DNA of 64,000 nucleotides, from NCBI GenBank assembly GCA_031414595.1, contig JANNVX010000018.1:1-64000 (forward strand). Direction: 5' to 3'. Source of the DNA: Deinococcales bacterium (lineage in GTDB: Bacteria > Deinococcota > Deinococci > Deinococcales > JAAFIG01). Shown piece by piece: positions 12,701-21,673 of the stretch. Each line of letters begins with the position of its first letter. Position 1 is the first letter of the stretch. Made by a program: the position numbers and the translations under genes. The notes below the pieces were generated by a model, which had not been told where the DNA came from, searched no databases, and saw only the letters and a program-made list of their open reading frames with translations.

Positions 12701-13094
12701 CTTTGATGTTGCTAAACACAGACTCACGGCACAAGCGGTTAAATTCCTCGAGTTCGGCGCGGGATGAGCCGTGGTTGCGCCCCTTCATGCCCATTTTCTT
12801 CTCGACAGCGATTTCCACAGGCAGCCCGTGGGTGTCCCAGCCGCCTTTTCGAGTGACATGAAAACCATTCATGACCTTAAAACGTGGAAAAATATCCTTG
12901 AAGGCTCGAGCCAGAACGTGATGCATGGCGGGTTGCCCATTGGCGGTAGGGGGTCCTTCGTAAAAAACAAATTCGCCACTAGGGGCAGGTTTTTGTTCGG
13001 TCTGCCCGAAAATGTCTCGAGACTTCCAGAACTCGAGAACGGTGGCTTCGACATCTTTGTAACTGACTTGTGGACTGACTTCATTAAATTTCAT
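9795..13094 (-). CDS. ileS: Isoleucine--tRNA ligase, type 2 (eukaryote-like)
   Basis: FYEGPPTANG, GWDTHGLPVE, WTTTPWTLPSN, DWGISRERYWG, DQTRGWFY, KMSKS; 1099 aa. Confidence 0.98.
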   Translation of the reverse strand: MKFNEVSPQVSYKDVEATVLEFWKSRDIFGQTEQKPAPSGEFVFYEGPPTANGQPAMHHVLARAFKDIFPRFKVMNGFHVTRKGGWDTHGLPVEIAVEKKMGMKGRNHGSSRAELEEFNRLCRESVFSNIKDWNYFTERLGMWVDLENAYVTYKNEYIESVWNLLKRLWDKGLVERDFKVVPVSPRIGSTLSKAELGDENSYQMVDDPSVYVRLPVKLETTPEALKSSLEAQGIDLTKLEQPALIVWTTTPWTLPSNTLAAVNPNLEYALCGSPMGHIIIAKNAVERISSLNKEAPPLEVLATFKGELMHFWQYEQPFPEVFEELGLNLEKFALPKPNTVGARHASPNTKPHPRAHIVVLADFVGDEDGSGLAHQAPVYGAEDLEVGKSYDCVLCFGTNGNGIMQVTDERGKFFKDADKGLIKIMKERGVMYHAGTLKHRYPFHDRTGDPILYFARPSWFIRTEKMAKRMSETNQAINWVPEHIRDGRFGKWLEGNVDWGISRERYWGSPLPFWVSEDGRDYVCIGSVQELENLMGKKLENEDLHRPYIDDATFIKDGKKFSRVPEVLDVWFDSGAMPYAQWHLMLGEDGTAQNLETFNKHFPADYICEAIDQTRGWFYSLHAIGTLLYDQPVYKNVICLGHLVDEKGAKMSKSKGNVVEPLPAFDKFGADSVRWYMFTGSEPGDTKRFSERLIAEGQRGFINTLWNVYSFFVLYANLDNPDLNTAPPLLERPEIDRWLISRLEGLTQTVTDALNNYDARKGGKALEAFVDELSNWYVRRNRRRFWTQDGAVDSSAYATLYEALVTVTKLAAPFTPFLSESLYQNLVCGVDSSAPESVHLCDFPKFNPSRFDAQLVSEMQVVIRTVDLGRAARGQANLKLRQPLQEVMLRARENADNLALERFSSTIAEELNVKAVKLLEEGTTLISYNLKPNLPTLGRKYGKNIPAIRTALQNSDSSKIVAHVNRSQNFLLETDDGAFDLEPADVLVDALSPEGFAAVEQDGLLVAFTTTLSQDLILEGLARDLLRAVQQARKDSGLEVSNRIALRLELTGDTLEAARAWEATLREDTLCDSLEYAAPLPTDFLVSLEEGGQIGLAKV
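12054..12077 (-). repeat. GTAG-type REP inside the ileS coding sequence
   Basis: Minus strand GTAGGGGCGAGGCATGCCTCGCCC, translated in frame as VGARHASP. Confidence 0.85.
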
Positions 13095-13127
13095 AAGACC
13101 TCGTTTGCATGGGTTGTTTGGTTTTTC

Positions 13128-13151
13128 GTAGGGGCGAGGTATGCCTCGCCC
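13128..13151 (+). repeat. GTAG-type REP
   Basis: GTAGGGGCGAGGTATGCCTCGCCC; identical copy at 30298-30321. Confidence 0.9.
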
Positions 13152-13249
13152 TGTGGAACGACATTATTTGAAATTTCCTTTGAATTGATTTATGGTTCTG
13201 TCTTTGGCTTATCTCGAGAAACGCCGTCCTGATTTCAATAAATTCCATT

Positions 13250-13840
13250 TCAATCTTTTGAACTACGAATGATTTTTGATATTTCTTTGTAAAAACCCAT
13301 TGCAAAATAAGCCGAGCCATAAAATTTGATGGCAGCGTATGGATCATCATATCCAATGATTTGAGGGAAATCCTTTAAGGTTTGGCTAAAGAAAAGTCCC
13401 ATGAAATACTGTTCCATAAAACCAGAGAATAAAAACAAAAATATCAAAAGAGAAAATGATAATATGTAAAATAACAAACAGACGTATTTTCGGTTTTTTT
13501 CAAGATAAAAGTTTCCAAAATCCCAAAGTAAAGCAATCAAAAAAATCGAAAAGAAAAAAAGACTTGCATGAATGTTTGCTCCAGTAAAACCGCTATCTCC
13601 ATTGCGATAAACTTTTTTAAGAATCAATGCTGAAATTTCTTTTGATAAATCAGCATTCGACTTTCCGATAAAAATTTTCTCGTTAGTAATATTTTTTGAG
13701 TTATCAATCCGAAAACCCACTATGACATTATTACGGAAAAAAAAAGTAGAGAAAATGATTAAAACAATTATCAGTAAAATCCATCTTGAATATTTTTTTG
13801 GAATTTCGTGAGTAGCTATGAAAATACCAATAGGGAACAT
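13250..13840 (-). CDS. Hypothetical membrane protein (AT-rich, about 3-4 TM segments)
   Basis: 196 aa with several hydrophobic stretches, AGGAG upstream, no recognised family. Confidence 0.65.
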   Translation of the reverse strand: MFPIGIFIATHEIPKKYSRWILLIIVLIIFSTFFFRNNVIVGFRIDNSKNITNEKIFIGKSNADLSKEISALILKKVYRNGDSGFTGANIHASLFFFSIFLIALLWDFGNFYLEKNRKYVCLLFYILSFSLLIFLFLFSGFMEQYFMGLFFSQTLKDFPQIIGYDDPYAAIKFYGSAYFAMGFYKEISKIIRSSKD

Positions 13841-13896
13841 ATTTCTCCTTCAGTTCTCAGCAAATCGCAATAGATGTCAGAATCTTTAATATAGCA

Positions 13897-13919
13897 GGGC
13901 GAACACGAGGGTTCGCTAC
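13897..13919 (-). repeat. Degenerate GTAG-type REP
   Basis: GTAG---CGAACCCTCGTGTTCGCCC with flanks homologous to the REP at 16763-16788. Confidence 0.75.
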
Positions 13920-13993
13920 AATTGATTGGTTTTGAATTCTCGAGATGTTGTGCATAAAATTGTTGGAGATATTTGTATTTGCTGTCATATAAT

Positions 13994-14785
13994 TCATCCT
14001 CTAAAGTCAAGATTTTTTAGGTACTGCTCGGCAACTTGCCCAAGACATAAGCGAATTGTTGTGAAAAACGGTCTCCATTGATGATCTAAATAACGACTGA
14101 TTAAGTTTAAGGTCACGTCTCGGTTGGCATTTCGCCATTCCTTTTTGTTATGTTCTATGTTTCTGAATACAACAAGCCGTTGCTGTACCAATCGGTCACA
14201 GTTTAAGTTGAGTATTTTTATAGTGTTTTCGACCAATTCAAAAACACTGCTAAACTTATTAGATTCTAATTGAATGGTTTCACAGTGTTGTGCATTTGGC
14301 TCGAGAAAACCATTCTTTGGGTTAAACCAAAACAAACAGGGTGATGCAATTATGGTTAGTGGGTTGAGAATAAAGCCTTCGCAGTCTTTTGATATTTTCC
14401 CCATCTGTTCCATATGATTTTTGTGCGAATCACAACTCAGGTTTTCGGGCAAAGGATACGGAGGGTTGCGTTCATGCAGGTAAGGTTTATCACCACCATT
14501 ACAAACGCCAATCATATTTGACCAAAGTAATGCCCAATTGATTAAGGGGTCGGTTGCATCTGATTTTGGATGAAAATGTTCTACTCGAGTCGTGAGTGGT
14601 TCTGAACCCGATATTTTGCATTCGCAATAAGCGCAAAGTCCATATTGGTCGTTGATAATTTGGTCTCTAATGCCAGCATAGACATTTTCAAAGTTTCGTA
14701 AATTTTCCCAAGTGGCTTTTGGATCGTCACGCTCAAAAGTGGATAATTCTCTAGGGGCAACAGGATTTTTGAAAACAAGTTTCAT
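13994..14785 (-). CDS. ptuB: HNH endonuclease, PtuB-like (Septu / retron Ec78-type effector)
   Basis: DQYGLCAYCE, RVEHFHPKS, WSNMIGVCNGG, SCDSHK, TIKILNLN. ATG 14785 overlaps the ATPase stop (ATGA). Confidence 0.8.
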   Translation of the reverse strand: MKLVFKNPVAPRELSTFERDDPKATWENLRNFENVYAGIRDQIINDQYGLCAYCECKISGSEPLTTRVEHFHPKSDATDPLINWALLWSNMIGVCNGGDKPYLHERNPPYPLPENLSCDSHKNHMEQMGKISKDCEGFILNPLTIIASPCLFWFNPKNGFLEPNAQHCETIQLESNKFSSVFELVENTIKILNLNCDRLVQQRLVVFRNIEHNKKEWRNANRDVTLNLISRYLDHQWRPFFTTIRLCLGQVAEQYLKNLDFRG

Positions 14786-16113
14786 TGGTTCTGCTCCCAA
14801 GTGCGGTTCTCAATGAATAAGTCAGCCTCGAGCAAGGCTGGTTCTTCGCCAAGGTAGCGTTGATCTAAAATCGTTCGTAACTCTTTGGCTCGAGGTGAAT
14901 TCCATTGGTTCTTGTAAACAAGGTCTTGATACTCAAGTAATTCTCGAGTTGCCATGTTGTTCTGCGGTCTAGGGTCAACTCCCAAAATGCGTTTTAGGAT
15001 TCGATTTGACTCAGCCCCTTCTGTACCAGAAGGAACAAAAATCTGATTGTTTTCAATAACCCGAATACATTCTGCTGGAACTGTAGATAAAACTTGTGGA
15101 CTGTGGGTACTAACAATAAATTGTGTGTTTGGAAAAGTACGTCGTAAATCCTCGAGAATTCGTTGTTGCCACATTGGATGCAAATGCAAGTCTATCTCGT
15201 CAATGATAACAATGGCTTCTTGGTGCAGTGGATCACTACCAGTTTCCGAAAATGGATTGGCTTGCGCCATTCGTAACGATAAGTCCATAACAAGGGCTAA
15301 CACAGTACGAAAGCCATCACTAAGCTGGGAAAGACGGAGTGTTTTAACAGTTCCATCCTCGAGTGTTTGATCAATCACAAATTGCAAGGGTTTAAGTTTG
15401 GTACGCGGATGCTTAAATCCTGGAAGCATGATTTGGATGGCTTCACGCATGGCTTTTAAGTCTGGTAACTGATATTCAAAATCTCTGCGTTCCTTTTGAG
15501 CTTCGTTCTCGAGACGTTCAAAATAATCAAAACGTTCATAGATGGTACGAAAATTACTCACTGCCCCAAAAGCGCCTTCTAAGGCTTCAAATCGCTTAAA
15601 CTGCTTACGGAAGTCGGTTCTTCGTTCTACTTCCTCGAGAAAAACACGATTTGTGCCATAGAAACGAATTAAAGGTAATTCATAGGATAGATTACTATTC
15701 TCGGAAGCAAGTAGATTTTTTATAAATTCTTCAAAAGCCCCATCCGTTTTAATTTCTTTAGCGATACCAAAATCTATTTCAGTTTGCTCTGAAATGATTT
15801 TTGTATTTTTATCACGGCGTTTGGCTGCCAACAGTCCTATATATTGAGTAGAGATGTTTGCCAGCAAACCAATCTGCGTAGAATCAACTAACTTGTCCTT
15901 ACTGTCAACTCGTATGTCATTTTGAATCAGTGACTTCCCATCCTTACGAATAAGTTGAGTTGCAAACCGACTCAGAAGGATATTGATTGCTTCAAGAACC
16001 GATGTTTTTCCCCCACCATTTTCAGAAACAAAAACAGTCAGATTATTATGAAATTTGACGTTAAGACTTTCAAAAGCCCGAAAATTTGTGAGTCGTAAGC
16101 TAATTATTTTCAC
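14782..16113 (-). CDS. ptuA: ABC-type AAA ATPase, PtuA-like
   Basis: Walker A SENGGGKT, QLSDG, IIDEIDLHLHPMWQ, STHSPQV; C-terminal GAESNRILKRILGVDPRP..DLFIENRTWE as in PtuA proteins. Confidence 0.82.
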   Translation of the reverse strand: MKIISLRLTNFRAFESLNVKFHNNLTVFVSENGGGKTSVLEAINILLSRFATQLIRKDGKSLIQNDIRVDSKDKLVDSTQIGLLANISTQYIGLLAAKRRDKNTKIISEQTEIDFGIAKEIKTDGAFEEFIKNLLASENSNLSYELPLIRFYGTNRVFLEEVERRTDFRKQFKRFEALEGAFGAVSNFRTIYERFDYFERLENEAQKERRDFEYQLPDLKAMREAIQIMLPGFKHPRTKLKPLQFVIDQTLEDGTVKTLRLSQLSDGFRTVLALVMDLSLRMAQANPFSETGSDPLHQEAIVIIDEIDLHLHPMWQQRILEDLRRTFPNTQFIVSTHSPQVLSTVPAECIRVIENNQIFVPSGTEGAESNRILKRILGVDPRPQNNMATRELLEYQDLVYKNQWNSPRAKELRTILDQRYLGEEPALLEADLFIENRTWEQNQ

Positions 16114-16130
16114 ATCACTCCTGTTTTAAT

Positions 16131-16208
16131 TTAGCAAACATTGACGAAACTCCACAAACCCTTGATGTTTTTGTAGCTGACTTGTGGACTGACTTCATTA
16201 AATTTCAT
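16131..16208 (-). pseudogene. Duplicated ileS 5' fragment (25-codon mini-ORF)
   Basis: MKFNEVSPQVSYK|NIKGLWSFVNVC*. 16170-16208 matches ileS 13056-13094 at 38/39 nt. Confidence 0.9.
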
Positions 16209-16617
16209 TGATTCCTCCGAATTTCAAAAAACGGTTAAATAAATAGGTAAATAATGGAGATAAGTCTCCATTTTGAATAAGAAATCGCTCTCTGGTTTCC
16301 TCGAGAAACCTATCTTCAAAAGGACTTGGACTTAAAACGACTGAGCCGCAATTAATCTGTTCGTTTGAAGAATTAATACCTGTGACAATATCCCAATCAA
16401 ACTCACCGCTCCGCCAAGCAGTAAAGGAACAAATTACACTCCAATCTCCTTTTGAGTTTACCGATACAAGGTCAATTCCACCTGAGTGCAAATTTTCTGG
16501 AGTATCCCAATGAGGATTGCGCCACGTTTTTTCAATCTGCAAATGATTTAGTTCAAGAATGACTTGATTGTTCTCGAGCCATTCAAGTAATTTCTCGGGA
16601 TATTGCAATTCAGTCAT
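16198..16617 (-). CDS. Small acidic protein, putative immunity protein (TriTu-like); paralog of 16960-17328
   Basis: Start moved to ATG 16617 (AAGGA RBS). PEKLLEWLENN..NPHWDTPENLHS..FTAWRSGEFDW. Confidence 0.5.
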   Translation of the reverse strand: MTELQYPEKLLEWLENNQVILELNHLQIEKTWRNPHWDTPENLHSGGIDLVSVNSKGDWSVICSFTAWRSGEFDWDIVTGINSSNEQINCGSVVLSPSPFEDRFLEETRERFLIQNGDLSPLFTYLFNRFLKFGGINEI

Positions 16618-16653
16618 GATTTCCTTGGGCAATCGAGAATTTTTTTTGATTTT

Positions 16654-16963
16654 GTAGGGACAGACCCCCGTGTCTGTCCTCTGAGAAAATATAAATTGGA
16701 ATTCCCTTTGAATCATTTTTATTAAATCCAATTGGTTCATCTCGAGAAATGCCGTCCTAGCAGGGCGAACACAGGGGTTCGCCCCTACAGTTGATTGGTT
16801 TTGAATTGTCAAAACGTTGAACATAAAAAGCCCTTTTTGTTTTCGTAGGGGAGGGTCTTGTACCCTCCCGCGTGAGACGACATTATTTGAAATTTCACAT
16901 TTAATTTTTTGGTGTACCTCAAGAAATGTCGTGTGGCAGGGCGACCACAAGGGTCGCCCCTAC
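16654..16963. repeat. Array of four GTAG-type REPs in alternating orientation (two REP doublets, BIME/REPIN-like)
   Basis: Hairpins at 16654-16680, 16763-16788, 16845-16869 and 16939-16963, each with a GTAGGG(G)/CCCCTAC foot. Confidence 0.9.
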
Positions 16964-17328
16964 AGTTGACTGGTAATCAATTGTTGAAAAAATGGTTTAA
17001 GAATAATGTCAAAGGACGATTCTGAAATGCTAATTTTTTTTCTACCTATTCCGTCATCATCCCCACTTGTTTTTTCTATCTCGAGAAATACTGAATCACC
17101 CAATAGAAGGTCATTATCAGAGCTATAAACCAAAAAATCGAAATGTCCAGCTTGCCAAATTGTCACATCTCCTGCATTGAGATTTGTCCAAAAAATTGCC
17201 CGTGCTGAGTGTAAAATACTTGGATTGTTCCAATCTGGATTTTTATTTGTTTCAATTTCATGAATCCCAAGCGCTAACAATCGCTTTTGATTTTTCTGAA
17301 CCCACTCGAGAAATATTTCTGGCAACAT
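16960..17328 (-). CDS. Small protein, putative immunity protein (TriTu-like)
   Basis: Start moved to ATG 17328. PEIFLEWVQKN..NPDWNNPSILHS..GDVTIWQAGHFDF. Its TAG stop is the TAG of a REP GTAG foot. Confidence 0.5.
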   Translation of the reverse strand: MLPEIFLEWVQKNQKRLLALGIHEIETNKNPDWNNPSILHSARAIFWTNLNAGDVTIWQAGHFDFLVYSSDNDLLLGDSVFLEIEKTSGDDDGIGRKKISISESSFDIILKPFFQQLITSQL

Positions 17329-17559
17329 AAAAACCCCAGCCAACGCATTGTGCGTTCTGCTGGGGCGCTGTTTGCGCGTTACCACCCAACTTCACTCGAG
17401 CCTCGCGGTTCTCGAGCCTTATGCCGTCTTGAACGGCTTGCGCTGTGTCGGGCGCTCCCGAATGGTTCTACTCGAGATTTGGGTCGGCGTGTCACCGCCG
17501 TCTCTTTCTTCCATTGGCTCGGAGGTGATGCTGATTGCTCAGGTTCTCGTCATTGCCGT
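17329..17559 (-). ncRNA. T-box riboswitch, Ile specifier (ileS-type, short stem I)
   Basis: Minus strand: GC-ATC-ACC..GAGCC..GGAAGAA (specifier 17527-17529), AGTAGAACC..CGGG..CCCGACACAGCGC, T-box GGGTGGTAACGCG (17375-17387), antiterminator partner CGCCCC, terminator CCCCAGC..GCTGGGG-TTTTT (17329-17365). Confidence 0.9.
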
Positions 17560-17565
17560 ATGCCT

Positions 17566-17595
17566 AGTTTACGCAACTAGGGGCGGATGTGTCAA
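17566..17595 (-). promoter_or_regulatory. Sigma70-type promoter of the T-box leader
   Basis: TTGACA-18 nt-TAAACT on the minus strand. Confidence 0.75.
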
Positions 17596-17611
17596 CGTGG
17601 TATTATGGCGT

Positions 17612-18112
17612 ATGCGTTCCGCGCCGGTCAAAACCGCTTTGTCCTTTGAACAGTTTCTCGAGTTTGAAAGCTCGAGCCTCGAGCGGCATGAATTTGTGAA
17701 CGGCAATATCCATGTGTACGGTGAGGCTGGAATCGCACATAACGATGTTGTAAGAATTGAACACGTTTTGCACGGTCTTCAAAGGGTACTTGCAGTCTTT
17801 GAATTGCAAGTCGTTCGACCAACAGAATTGCTTGTCTTTGTTGCAGGTGAATTGACAGCTGTCTTTATGGTTTTATCGAGTATGGCAGAATTGTTGGCTC
17901 GTGGTGAGAAGTGGCAGAATTATCAGACCATTCCAAGTCTCGAGCAGTACGTGTTGCTTTCACAATCCGAGCCTTTAGCCGAAGTGTACACCCGTCAAGC
18001 AGATGGTTCTAGGCGCTATCAGTCGTTTTCGGGTGCGGCAATCATTTCTTTTCCAAGTATTTCTTTTGAATTGTCTCTAAAAACTTTATATGCCGATTTG
18101 CCTGTCAATTAA
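17612..18112 (+). CDS. Uma2-family (DUF820) protein with degenerate core
   Basis: Start moved to ATG 17612. FEQFLEFE..RHEFVNG and RGEKWQNYQTIPSLEQYVLLSQ are Uma2-like; the central PD/EVLS region is not conserved. Confidence 0.7.
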   Translation: MRSAPVKTALSFEQFLEFESSSLERHEFVNGNIHVYGEAGIAHNDVVRIEHVLHGLQRVLAVFELQVVRPTELLVFVAGELTAVFMVLSSMAELLARGEKWQNYQTIPSLEQYVLLSQSEPLAEVYTRQADGSRRYQSFSGAAIISFPSISFELSLKTLYADLPVN

Positions 18113-18252
18113 TATCAGGTAAGCATCAGGTTTTGTCTTTAGCATGAAAGTCAGAAGTACGTGAAAGGAGGTGCTTTGGCATCTAAACATCCGTTTTCGT
18201 TTTTCGTCATTTTTTCCACTGGTGCAGACAAAGAGAGGCGTATCCTGACTGA

Positions 18253-19080
18253 TTACAAAAAAGTTGTTGCTATCTCGAGTGCGTTCTGTGTTAATTCTGG
18301 GATGCACTCGAGATTAATGTTGTGTGACAGAAGTGGCAAGACCAGTTCCGTGGGTAAATTCCCGATTAAATGATTGCCAGCAAATGGACAACCGCCAATC
18401 CCACCAAGTGTTCCCTCAAGCCATGTAATTCCAGCATCTAAGGCGGCTTGGGCTAGACCAACAGCAGCTTCGGCTCGAGCATGGAGATGCACACCGATGT
18501 TTTGATTGCCAAAATTTTGAACGACTGCGCTTGTAACTTGTTGCACTCGAGCAACATCGGCAATACCGTAAGTATCGGCAAGAACGATGTTCTGAATACC
18601 AATTTCGCGTAGGTGCGCCACGCTCTCAAGGACTAATTCCACATCCCACGGGTCATTGTATGGGTTGCCAAATCCCATTGAAAGGTAAACCACCAACCGT
18701 AAATGCTCGGCTCGAGACTGAATTTCTGCAACCAATCCCCATGAATCCTCGAGTGAAGTGTTGGTGTTGCGGCGCTGGAATGTATCTGAAATGGACAACG
18801 GATAGCCAACACTACTTACTTTTTTGCAAGCCAAGGCTCGAGTTAAACCTTTTTGATTGGCGATGATGCAGAGTAAATCGGCTTTTGTTGCGGGTAGTGC
18901 TTCAAGTACCGCTTCGGTGTCTGCCATTTGTGGGATGGCGTGACTCGAGACAAAACTGCCACAGTCAAGGTGCGTAAATCCTGCTTCAAGCAGGTTTTTG
19001 AGGTGTGCAATTTTTTGTTCGGTAGGAATAAATGTTTGCATCCCTTGCCAAGCATCGCGTGGGCATTCAACATAAATCAC
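18253..19080 (-). CDS. Hydroxymethylglutaryl-CoA lyase
   Basis: ECPRDAWQG, GSFVS..IPQMAD, LADTYG, GVHLH, GGIGGCPFA. Confidence 0.9.
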   Translation of the reverse strand: MIYVECPRDAWQGMQTFIPTEQKIAHLKNLLEAGFTHLDCGSFVSSHAIPQMADTEAVLEALPATKADLLCIIANQKGLTRALACKKVSSVGYPLSISDTFQRRNTNTSLEDSWGLVAEIQSRAEHLRLVVYLSMGFGNPYNDPWDVELVLESVAHLREIGIQNIVLADTYGIADVARVQQVTSAVVQNFGNQNIGVHLHARAEAAVGLAQAALDAGITWLEGTLGGIGGCPFAGNHLIGNLPTELVLPLLSHNINLECIPELTQNALEIATTFL

Positions 19081-21511: not shown

Positions 21512-21586
21512 GGCGTTGTAGCCAAGTGGTAAGGCAAGGCTCTGCAAAAGCCTCATCCGGCGGTTCAAATCCGCCCAACGCCTCCA
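21512..21586 (+). tRNA. tRNA-Cys(GCA)
   Basis: Acceptor GGCGTTG/CAACGCC, anticodon arm AGGCT-CTGCAAA-AGCCT, GGTTCAAATCC, encoded CCA. Confidence 0.97.
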
Positions 21587-21598
21587 CAATTCGTTTTT

Positions 21599-21673
21599 AG
21601 GCTCGTAGCTCAGGGGTAGAGCACTACATTGACACTGTAGGGGTCAGCAGTTCAAATCTGCTCGAGCCTACCA
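21599..21673 (+). tRNA. tRNA-Val(GAC)
   Basis: Acceptor AGGCTCG/CGAGCCT, anticodon arm CTACA-TTGACAC-TGTAG, GTTCAAAT, encoded CCA. Confidence 0.97.

Follow-up and report, generated by a model that had tools for sequence, protein, structure and literature searches.

An isoleucine T-box leader, ileS and the conflict-system cassettes between them: putative cassette slots under tRNA-charging control in a Deinococcales family

T-boxes are well-established regulators of genes for amino-acid supply. We analyzed a 64,000-nt stretch of DNA (the whole of it here referred to as the window) from contig JANNVX010000018.1, 201 kb long, of the Deinococcales bacterium assembly GCA_031414595.1 (genome G000). 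In the window an isoleucine (Ile) T-box leader is followed on the minus strand by TriTu-like gene 1, TriTu-like gene 2, a relic of the ileS start, the Septu genes ptuA and ptuB, a gene for a small membrane protein and only then ileS, which encodes isoleucyl-tRNA synthetase (IleRS) (Table 1). Our preferred reading, to which we give a probability of about 60%, is that this region is one composite unit that is led by the T-box and ends in ileS, that ileS and valS harbour lineage-specific cassette slots, and that the cargo is co-transcribed under tRNA-charging control. An earlier sequence-only reading had placed five co-oriented accessory genes over 4.2 kb between T-box and ileS, and all five are found where it put them. 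We compared the region across 19 genomes of the family, in 15 of which the ileS slot is resolved, and with an order-level sample of 71 genomes. T-box and synthetase matches on the same contig were paired by hand, and the distances taken from match tables are therefore approximate, with an error of up to about 35 nt. Enrichment at T-box slots is expressed throughout as comparative counts.

On the evidence of its sequence, the window leader is a real, Ile-specific T-box. The specifier AUC with its following A is invariant in all 15 aligned leaders, and so is the block GAAGUUGGGUGGUA.CGCG with the UGGU bulge. G000 encodes tRNA-Ile(GAU) twice, both times with an encoded A73-CCA end, and this tRNA agrees with the specifier as well as with the UGGU bulge. 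In a permissive Rfam scan the T-box model RF00230 matched over its full span (model positions 1-219) at 17562-17358, with 27.4 bits and an E-value of 0.0033. The window leader is thus below the RF00230 gathering score of 93 bits, which is a classification cut-off and not a structural feature, and is unreported at that threshold. Orthologous leaders reached 107.5 (G016, above the cut-off), 89.7, 85.9, 83, 76.7, 76.4, 58.4, 41 and 32.1 bits. The low score of the window leader is explained by its truncated distal Stem I: in the 15-leader alignment about 70 nt of this arm are missing from G000, G001 and G005 and kept in the other 12 relatives, and the canonical long Stem I with its distal tRNA-elbow platform is absent from the window leader. 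Since sister species retain the long stem, the truncation arose independently within one Deinococcales genus. According to the excerpted text of PMC7583486, transcriptional T-boxes generally require a long Stem I and ultrashort stems typify the translational ileS leaders of Actinobacteria, which makes an ultrashort Stem I together with an intrinsic terminator unusual.

The terminator is conserved as well. Its folding energy ranges from -18.7 to -26.4 kcal/mol in the eight leaders that were folded whole, while for G009, G011 and G014-G018 the fold was cut at the loop UUUU and the stems were read from the sequence. The stems vary between genera by compensatory changes (CCCCAGC/GCUGGGG, CCCCAACACGAG/CGUGUUGGGG and CCCGACACAG/CUGUGUCG), and the 5' strand CCCCA of the terminator is common to the antiterminator, a mutually exclusive pairing that was read by eye. 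RNAalifold on the MAFFT alignment of the 15 leaders was uninformative and gave spurious long-range pairs, and per-leader folds were used instead. The first ATG (17328-17326) directly abuts the U tract of the terminator; it is a speculative thought that the 3'-strand GGGG, 5 nt ahead of this ATG, doubles as a sequestered Shine-Dalgarno sequence. The promoter-like site ahead of the leader is kept in the leaders of G001, G005 and G007. Within 12900-18300 we found no second T-box match at E<=10 and hence none beside ileS; weak Rfam matches to CRISPR-DR5, PK-repZ and sR14 in the interval (E 1.1-7.5) were treated as chance. The sequence-only reading had called a promoter, a complete Ile T-box (AUC, UGGU and terminator), a first ATG right behind the U tract and no separate T-box next to ileS. 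Each of these stands, and the RF00230 match disposes of the objection that the leader might escape the T-box model. Around the leader we also noted two tRNA genes 4 kb away, at 21512-21583 (+) and 21599-21673 (+), and a gene for a putative Uma2-family endonuclease at about 17650-18112 (+) (Pfam, 3.6e-07) that diverges from the leader promoter; its mechanical open reading frame (ORF) call (17348-18112) overlaps the leader on the opposite strand.

We then turned to the contents of the slot in the family. Cargo lies between T-box and ileS in 11 of the 15 resolved loci and differs in content among them, which is the variation among relatives that the sequence-only reading had asked to see. Besides G000, with two TriTu-like genes, the ileS relic, ptuAB and the membrane protein, the pair ptuAB is present in G005 (followed by a membrane protein), in G007 (between two membrane proteins, with repeats before the second), in G003 (alone) and in G016, which belongs to a different genus (also alone). 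TriTu-like genes are found in G006, together with a membrane protein, and in G013, as the only cargo. A membrane protein alone fills the slot of G001 and G018, Nudix and a membrane protein that of G009, and Nudix alone that of G014, while the slots of G002, G011, G015 and G017 are empty (about 90-170 nt). Counted over the 15 loci, ptuAB occurs in five, the membrane family in seven, TriTu-like genes in three and Nudix in two, and four are empty. The conserved T-box terminator sits 0-44 nt before the first cargo gene. In G016 about 41 nt separate the U tract from ptuA and 39 nt separate ptuB from ileS; in G005 ptuA begins 16 nt behind the U tract and ileS begins 12 nt behind the membrane gene; in G009 the TGA of the membrane gene overlaps the GTG start of ileS. 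These tight junctions leave no space for separate promoters. T-box and ileS share a contig in 33 genomes from outside the family. A gap of about 27-320 nt separates them in 32 of these genomes; the exception, G067, has a gap of about 1.5 kb with an alpha/beta-hydrolase gene.

A second slot is found at valS. The Val T-box of G000 (C4:27110-27356, 61 bits, GUC specifier read by eye) lies 5.2 kb from valS (G000:C4:27110-35200; locus L098 611-8716), and its cognate tRNA-Val(GAC) is encoded in the window at 21599-21673 (+). The interval, with 37-40% GC, holds a Nudix gene, a 148-aa ORF, a type II methyltransferase, a restriction endonuclease and a 257-aa ORF. The methyltransferase is an N6-adenine methylase with a TaqI-like specificity domain (PADLOC, 1.8e-105) and an N-terminal helix-turn-helix (HTH), and the restriction enzyme matches at 6.8e-68. 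Family Val T-boxes and valS could be paired on the same contig ten times; nine of these pairs hold 0.86-5.2 kb of cargo, and G002 is empty. On further Val T-box contigs, from G001, G004, G007 and G017, Pfam-annotated cargo precedes the contig end, and the Val contig of G016 ends within its first ORF, Nudix-like by eye. The first gene of the valS slot is nearly always Nudix, and the remainder is variable: HicB with a small upstream ORF (G014, G015 and G017), a Phd/DUF2281-like gene with PIN (G018 and G008), YhcG/DUF1016 nucleases (G007 and G004, with a fragment in G018) and AAA_21 ATPases (G007, with DUF4276, and G017).

Among 30 Val T-box/valS pairs from outside the family, 16 are direct (15-130 nt) and 14 are separated by 540-990 nt, which fits one small gene; four sampled fillers were a Nudix gene, an S-adenosylmethionine-dependent (SAM) methyltransferase and two unknown ORFs. 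As a negative control we used the glycine (Gly) T-box, which adjoins glyQS at 27-90 nt in all 18 family pairs. On these counts, only this family has accumulated multi-gene cargo, and it has done so only behind its ileS and valS leaders. The second slot, at valS, strongly reinforces the suggestion of the sequence-only reading that the leader of an essential gene serves as a site of cassette accumulation.

Several side observations belong to these loci. A SMEK_N/Aga-REase-like gene follows valS in G000. G010:C268 (L069 2681-5101), from a fourth genus, has Nudix, a PIN-like ORF (by eye) and valS in this order behind a T-box, and the mechanical ORF call runs the PIN-like frame and valS together as a single open frame. 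ORFs of 250-290 aa stand directly before valS in several genera (L102, L105, L108, L114 and L117; G015, G013, G001, G074 and G067); they have similar tryptophan-rich N-termini by eye and none matches Pfam. At G000:C1:70846-71745, matches to the N-terminus of the G000 glycyl-tRNA synthetase (GlyRS) break at about residues 122-160 in all relatives except G012:C790, and the G000 GlyRS may hold a variable or inserted segment there.

The proposed mechanism is that successive insertions lodge conflict-system cassettes between an Ile-specific T-box attenuator and the essential ileS. Transcription from about 17560 would stop at 17329 or, with uncharged tRNA-Ile, would continue across the cargo as far as ileS. 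More uncharged tRNA-Ile would thus mean more cargo expression, and RNA polymerase would get to ileS only by way of the cargo. We infer such read-through because the conserved terminator precedes the cargo and the tightest loci have no space for a promoter. Three reasons for accretion at this place can be proposed. First, transcription would be guaranteed between an essential gene and its sensor and promoter. Second, silencing or imprecise deletion would harm the essential gene. Third, homologous recombination within the conserved flanks could exchange cassettes among relatives.

Against this preferred reading we have to set several points, part of which favour another one, namely that the slot is a passive hotspot where cargo and ileS have promoters of their own, the T-box controls at most the first small ORF or decays, and the position has no regulatory meaning. 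Promoter-like hexamers lie on the minus strand of the AT-rich cargo (16073-16045 and 13988-13959), and spacers of 153-345 nt with repetitive extragenic palindromic (REP)-like elements separate cargo genes of the window. The ptuA gene of the window stands 1.2 kb behind the leader, with two REP-like units, a second ORF and the ileS relic in between; the repeats ahead of it could hold a promoter, and REP hairpins could terminate, process or stabilise RNA. With its ultrashort Stem I the leader lacks the distal arm, and its sensing may be weakened or partly translational. The HTH-bearing methylase of the restriction-modification (R-M) system at valS may regulate itself. Moreover, the Gly T-boxes, which are never cargo-bearing, show that a T-box alone does not attract cassettes. 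Co-transcription of the cargo with ileS is probable, judged from geometry and conservation only. Finally, every genome compared is a metagenome-assembled genome (MAG), and the ileS slot is unresolved in G004, G008 and G012, where the ileS match is absent, and in G010, where a contig end cuts ileS.

A hotspot of this passive kind is nevertheless unlikely. The leader is kept in all 15 loci, and the best T-box of all (107.5 bits) precedes ptuAB in G016. Promoters do not fit into the junctions of G016, G005 and G009, and promoter-like sites are not above shuffled controls (11 vs 10.8). Terminator-like sites likewise number 5 vs 4.6 in the controls, and only two weak ones follow the leader on the minus strand, one inside TriTu-like gene 2 and one at the ptuA/ptuB junction.

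Part of the cargo of the window is ptuAB, which the sequence-only reading had named and which PADLOC identifies at 2.2e-119 (PtuA) and 8e-93 (PtuB). The start of ptuB overlaps the end of ptuA, and PtuB has no Pfam match at E<=0.01. In five orthologues the PtuA motifs VFVSENGGGKT, DEIDLHLHP and QLSDG (P-loop and Walker B region) and the PtuB motifs CxxC and EHFH are invariant, as are 250 of 451 columns of the PtuA alignment. No reverse transcriptase (RT) domain was found in the six ORFs of the cargo interval and the divergent upstream ORF, nor any retron RNA family at E<=10 in 12900-18300, and we predict a stand-alone Septu because both are missing there. Family PtuA orthologues with at least 65% identity are all (5/5) in the ileS slot, and remoter PtuA-like ATPases (29-38% identity) are located elsewhere in the family genomes. 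Relatives of PtuA among genome contigs amount to seven loci, of which two Deinococcales MAG loci (L033 and L034) are close and the next, at 39-40%, are from other phyla. Within the genus PtuA is 64-98% identical, compared with 95-98% for IleRS, and G003 is a mosaic, with PtuA nearest to G007 (83%) and PtuB nearest to G000 and G005 (79-81% vs 62%). Fast and mosaic evolution of PtuAB fits allele exchange inside a fixed slot.

The two small genes next to the leader had been taken for paralogous immunity-like proteins. They are 34% identical, and the term "immunity-like" is borne out by structure prediction, which gives a TriTu-like fold. The second of them had been drawn too long: the mechanical "orf250" is mostly REP-like repeat sequence, and the actual gene encodes 139 aa (16198-16617) and is preceded by REP-like repeats. 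None of the four TriTu-like members matches Pfam TriTu (PF24689) at E<=10, and one lead to TriTu came from the Atlas (0.84). An exhaustive profile search of 1.84 billion representatives gave 21 matches, and among these relatives P0022 matches Pfam TriTu with 48.5 bits (cut-off 27) and P0008, P0013 and P0016 match it with 23-25 bits. The protein model (predicted local distance difference test, pLDDT, 92; predicted template modelling score, pTM, 0.85) aligns by VIA-align to 7zhm_C with Z 9.0 and a root-mean-square deviation (rmsd) of 2.5 A over 86 of 87 residues, the top match and the only one with Z>=8; Foldseek gave E 0.065 and a probability of 0.97 for the same chain. The TreTu toxin, which TriTu neutralises, targets elongation factor Tu, while the title of 7zhm names only a toxin-immunity complex. 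No Rhs or toxin domain was found among the scanned interval ORFs, and the neighbours of genes 1 and 2 are the T-box, REP-like units, the paralogue and ptuA. The 71 order genomes yielded four TriTu-like genes, every one of them inside the ileS slot, and a TriTu-like ATG abuts the terminator U tract in G000, G006 and G013. In three further database relatives the called N-termini are translated T-box or terminator sequence. In metagenome contigs, 123 pattern matches with a narrower alignment gave no confirmed relative.

Taken further, such findings may point to a dedicated tRNA-sensing defence locus, in which uncharged tRNA-Ile is an alarm that an IleRS inhibitor, phage takeover or a toxin aimed at translation would raise and that adaptively induces Septu, the TriTu-like proteins and ileS. 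The effector class does act on tRNA: in the abstracts of PMC11555353, PMC12673091 and PMC13096335, Retron-Eco7 PtuAB degrades tRNA-Tyr and stand-alone Septu cuts the variable loop of tRNA-Tyr, so that the background on PtuAB and tRNA given with the sequence-only reading was correct. The confinement of the five PtuA orthologues and four TriTu-like genes to the Ile T-box slot, the TriTu-like starts at the U tract with their T-box-derived database counterparts, and the intactness of ptuAB speak for the same idea. However, the known Septu target in these abstracts is tRNA-Tyr and not tRNA-Ile, and the slot contents are mixed (R-M, HicB, PIN, Nudix, nucleases and membrane protein), with no obvious link to tRNA-Ile or tRNA-Val. 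Moreover, ptuAB is missing from 10 of the 15 loci, among them G001, whose IleRS is 99% identical over 193 aa, and recombination in conserved flanks explains the fixed position equally well. We regard a dedicated defence locus as improbable; the tRNA signal may be put to a specific immune use, but the data can be explained without one.

A bolder reading seems doubtful to us. It would make the ileS and valS leaders integron-like platforms on which promoter-less conflict cassettes (Septu tRNA-nuclease, TriTu-like proteins, HicAB/VapBC RNase toxin pairs, R-M systems and other nucleases) are dosed by tRNA charging. Uncharged tRNA, arising from starvation, phage takeover or translation-targeting toxins, would be a general alarm that boosts immunity and synthetase together, and the TriTu-like family would be a protector of Ile charging. 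No integrase domain occurs among the interval ORFs scanned, and attC sites were not searched for.

The possibility that the ptuAB block was misjoined through the 32-39-nt repeat and REP copies is very remote. Short-k unitigs chain across the entire interval and are interrupted nowhere but at REP copies and at the exact 32-nt part of the ileS duplication; these breaks, and the fact that the same 32-nt word bounds the 3142-nt ptuAB-membrane unitig on both sides, speak for such a misjoin. In run X4, on the other hand, block and flanks have equal depth (35.7, 37, 33.4 and 35.3), the shared 32-mer is about twice as deep in run X1 (29 vs 11.5 and 14), and the contig extends over 201 kb; these sequencing runs may be the MAG's own source and are in that case not independent of the assembly. 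Run X2, of which about 74% was read, gave no cover of 13218-16080, though the index gives 0.99 of words, and we concluded nothing from it. A joint 13628>16221 (side 21), seen on a single contig in run X1, was set aside as unreliable. The leader, ptuAB and ileS are contiguous in four other MAG assemblies (G003, G005, G007 and G016), each without the 39-nt duplication. As five separate MAG assemblies share the layout, a chimera, which had been raised with the sequence-only reading as a danger to it, is unlikely. In G005 a second copy of the leader stops at its contig end.

The remaining features of the interval bear on how the cargo came there. The relic ahead of ptuA (16208-16170) matches 13094-13056 at 38 of 39 nt, with an uninterrupted exact run of 32 nt, and is an insertion junction or recombination scar within the first 13 ileS codons. 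The 3.1-kb ptuAB-membrane block thus lies between two direct copies of the 39-nt ileS start, an arrangement that resembles an att-type duplication and would permit precise excision via recombination. REP-like units border the cassettes at 16640-16958, 13892-13959 and 13130-13230, and the membrane gene sits between two halves of one such unit. The units contain GC-rich hairpins of two kinds, of which the genome has about 43 and about 77 copies. A similar hairpin stands upstream of ileS in the cargo-free G015. The membrane protein has no Pfam or PADLOC match, and a search of 5.8 billion proteins found only itself; its atlas matches are unnamed clusters (at most 0.88), and its model (pLDDT 73.6) gives generic helical matches with a best Z of 8.9.

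The composition of the cargo is foreign, with 27-43% GC compared with about 50% in the flanks, yet it carries the CTCGAG signature of the lineage: it has 16 sites over 4236 nt, where base composition predicts about 0.6. The shared excess of CTCGAG points to long residence in the lineage. In G000 as a whole CTCGAG has 23,235 copies in 4.49 Mb against about 970 expected, while the next 6-mer palindrome has 3,131. The window contains 346 sites, one per 185 bp, and sampled loci of 15 relatives contain one per 125-271 bp. Such abundance resembles the highly iterated palindromes of cyanobacteria.

Table 1. Features of the T-box-ileS region of the window.
Feature	Position	Strand	Basis and remarks
Sigma-70-type promoter-like site	17595-17566	minus	TTGACA (17595-17590), 18-nt spacer, TAAACT (17571-17566); 10 of 12 matches
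Ile T-box leader	17557-17329	minus	about 230 nt
Ultrashort Stem I	17557-17516	minus	GA/kink-turn-like base, 4-bp stem, GCAA tetraloop; structure read by eye
Specifier AUC, then A	17529-17527, 17526	minus	within Stem I
Linker with Stem II and Stem IIA/B pseudoknot-like element (CGGGAGCGCCCGACACAGCGC)	17515-17421	minus	conserved blocks; assignment by eye and from T-box anatomy
Stem III (CUCGAG/CUCGAG), T-box sequence, antiterminator, terminator, U tract	17420-17329	minus	covariance match, alignment, folds
UGGU bulge	17384-17381	minus	T-box sequence
Terminator hairpin, then U5	17365-17334, 17333-17329	minus	-23.3 kcal/mol
TriTu-like gene 1, 122 aa	17328-16960	minus	ATG abuts U tract
Two REP-like repeat units, GC-rich hairpins, non-coding	16958-16640	minus	repeat families D1-D4; unitig depth 350-1100
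TriTu-like gene 2, 139 aa	16617-16198	minus	paralogue, 34% identity to gene 1, E 8e-08
ileS 5' relic	16208-16131	minus	GGAGG Shine-Dalgarno and 13 ileS codons (16208-16170), then unrelated sequence and stop
ptuA, Septu ATPase, 443 aa	16113-14782	minus	PADLOC PDLC00311, 2.2e-119, residues 1-441; Pfam AAA_15, SMC_N, AAA_21
ptuB, HNH-type nuclease, 268 aa from TTG	14800-13994	minus	PADLOC PDLC00338, 8e-93, residues 6-268
Small membrane protein, 196 aa, four predicted helices	13840-13250	minus	fast-evolving family recurring in the slot
Spacer with REP-like hairpin (GGGCGAGGCATACCTCGCCCC) and ileS ribosome-binding region	13249-13095	minus	repeat and sequence reading
ileS, isoleucyl-tRNA synthetase, 1099 aa	13094-9795	minus	Pfam tRNA-synt_1 4.7e-107, Anticodon_1, DUF5915

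If the cargo is read through, the region would be a natural example of immunity genes that answer to the charging state of a tRNA, and of mobile cassettes that find shelter between an essential gene and the one sensor this gene has. It also offers testable material, namely the compact T-box-ptuAB-ileS locus of G016, the ultrashort and long-stem leaders of sister species, and an immunity-fold family found only behind Ile T-boxes. Moreover, the distance from T-box to synthetase makes a simple genome-wide screen for further slots.

T-boxes, ultrashort Stem I in Actinobacteria and Septu are already known. Conflict cargo behind T-boxes is apparently new, as we found no prior description of it: in a search of full-text literature, mostly non-subscription and with supplements excluded, no paper tied a T-box to Septu, anti-phage or toxin-antitoxin cargo. 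The excerpted text of PMC2494555 reports T-boxes for the ile and gly ligases of Deinococcus radiodurans and also T-box operons in which another gene comes ahead of the synthetase gene.

With the canonical ileS T-box leaders of Bacillus and Staphylococcus the window leader shares the specifier with its purine, Stem II and a pseudoknot-like region, the UGGN bulge, the competition of antiterminator and terminator, the U tract and the cognate aminoacyl-tRNA synthetase gene downstream. It differs from them in that 4.2 kb with five unrelated genes separate it from ileS and in that distal Stem I is deleted in its clade. The ultrashort-Stem-I ileS T-boxes of Actinobacteria (Sherwood et al. 2015, as excerpted from PMC7583486) have in common with it the Ile specificity, a truncation just above the specifier loop, and Stem II with the pseudoknot, but they are translational and act by Shine-Dalgarno sequestration, whereas the window leader keeps an intrinsic terminator and U tract.

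As in Septu and Retron-Eco7/Ec78, the pair in the window has full-length PtuA and PtuB matches, overlapping genes and conserved catalytic motifs. Unlike Retron-Eco7/Ec78, it comes without RT or retron non-coding RNA and is known here from sequence alone, and unlike the usual Septu in a stand-alone defence island, it lies inside a T-box-led synthetase operon. The TriTu-like protein is predicted to have the same fold as TriTu of the Salmonella Rhs1 TreTu toxin (PDB 7zhm), and its relatives reach Pfam TriTu; in contrast to that protein it is only 15% identical to it, has no direct Pfam match, and every copy found stands behind an Ile T-box. Integron arrays and defence hotspots flanked by core genes share with the slot a fixed place, one upstream promoter, variable co-oriented cassettes (toxin-antitoxin and defence) and allele exchange. 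In contrast to integrons, the slot in the window has a riboswitch leader as its platform and an essential gene at its end, and its repeats are REP-like hairpins of a generic kind.

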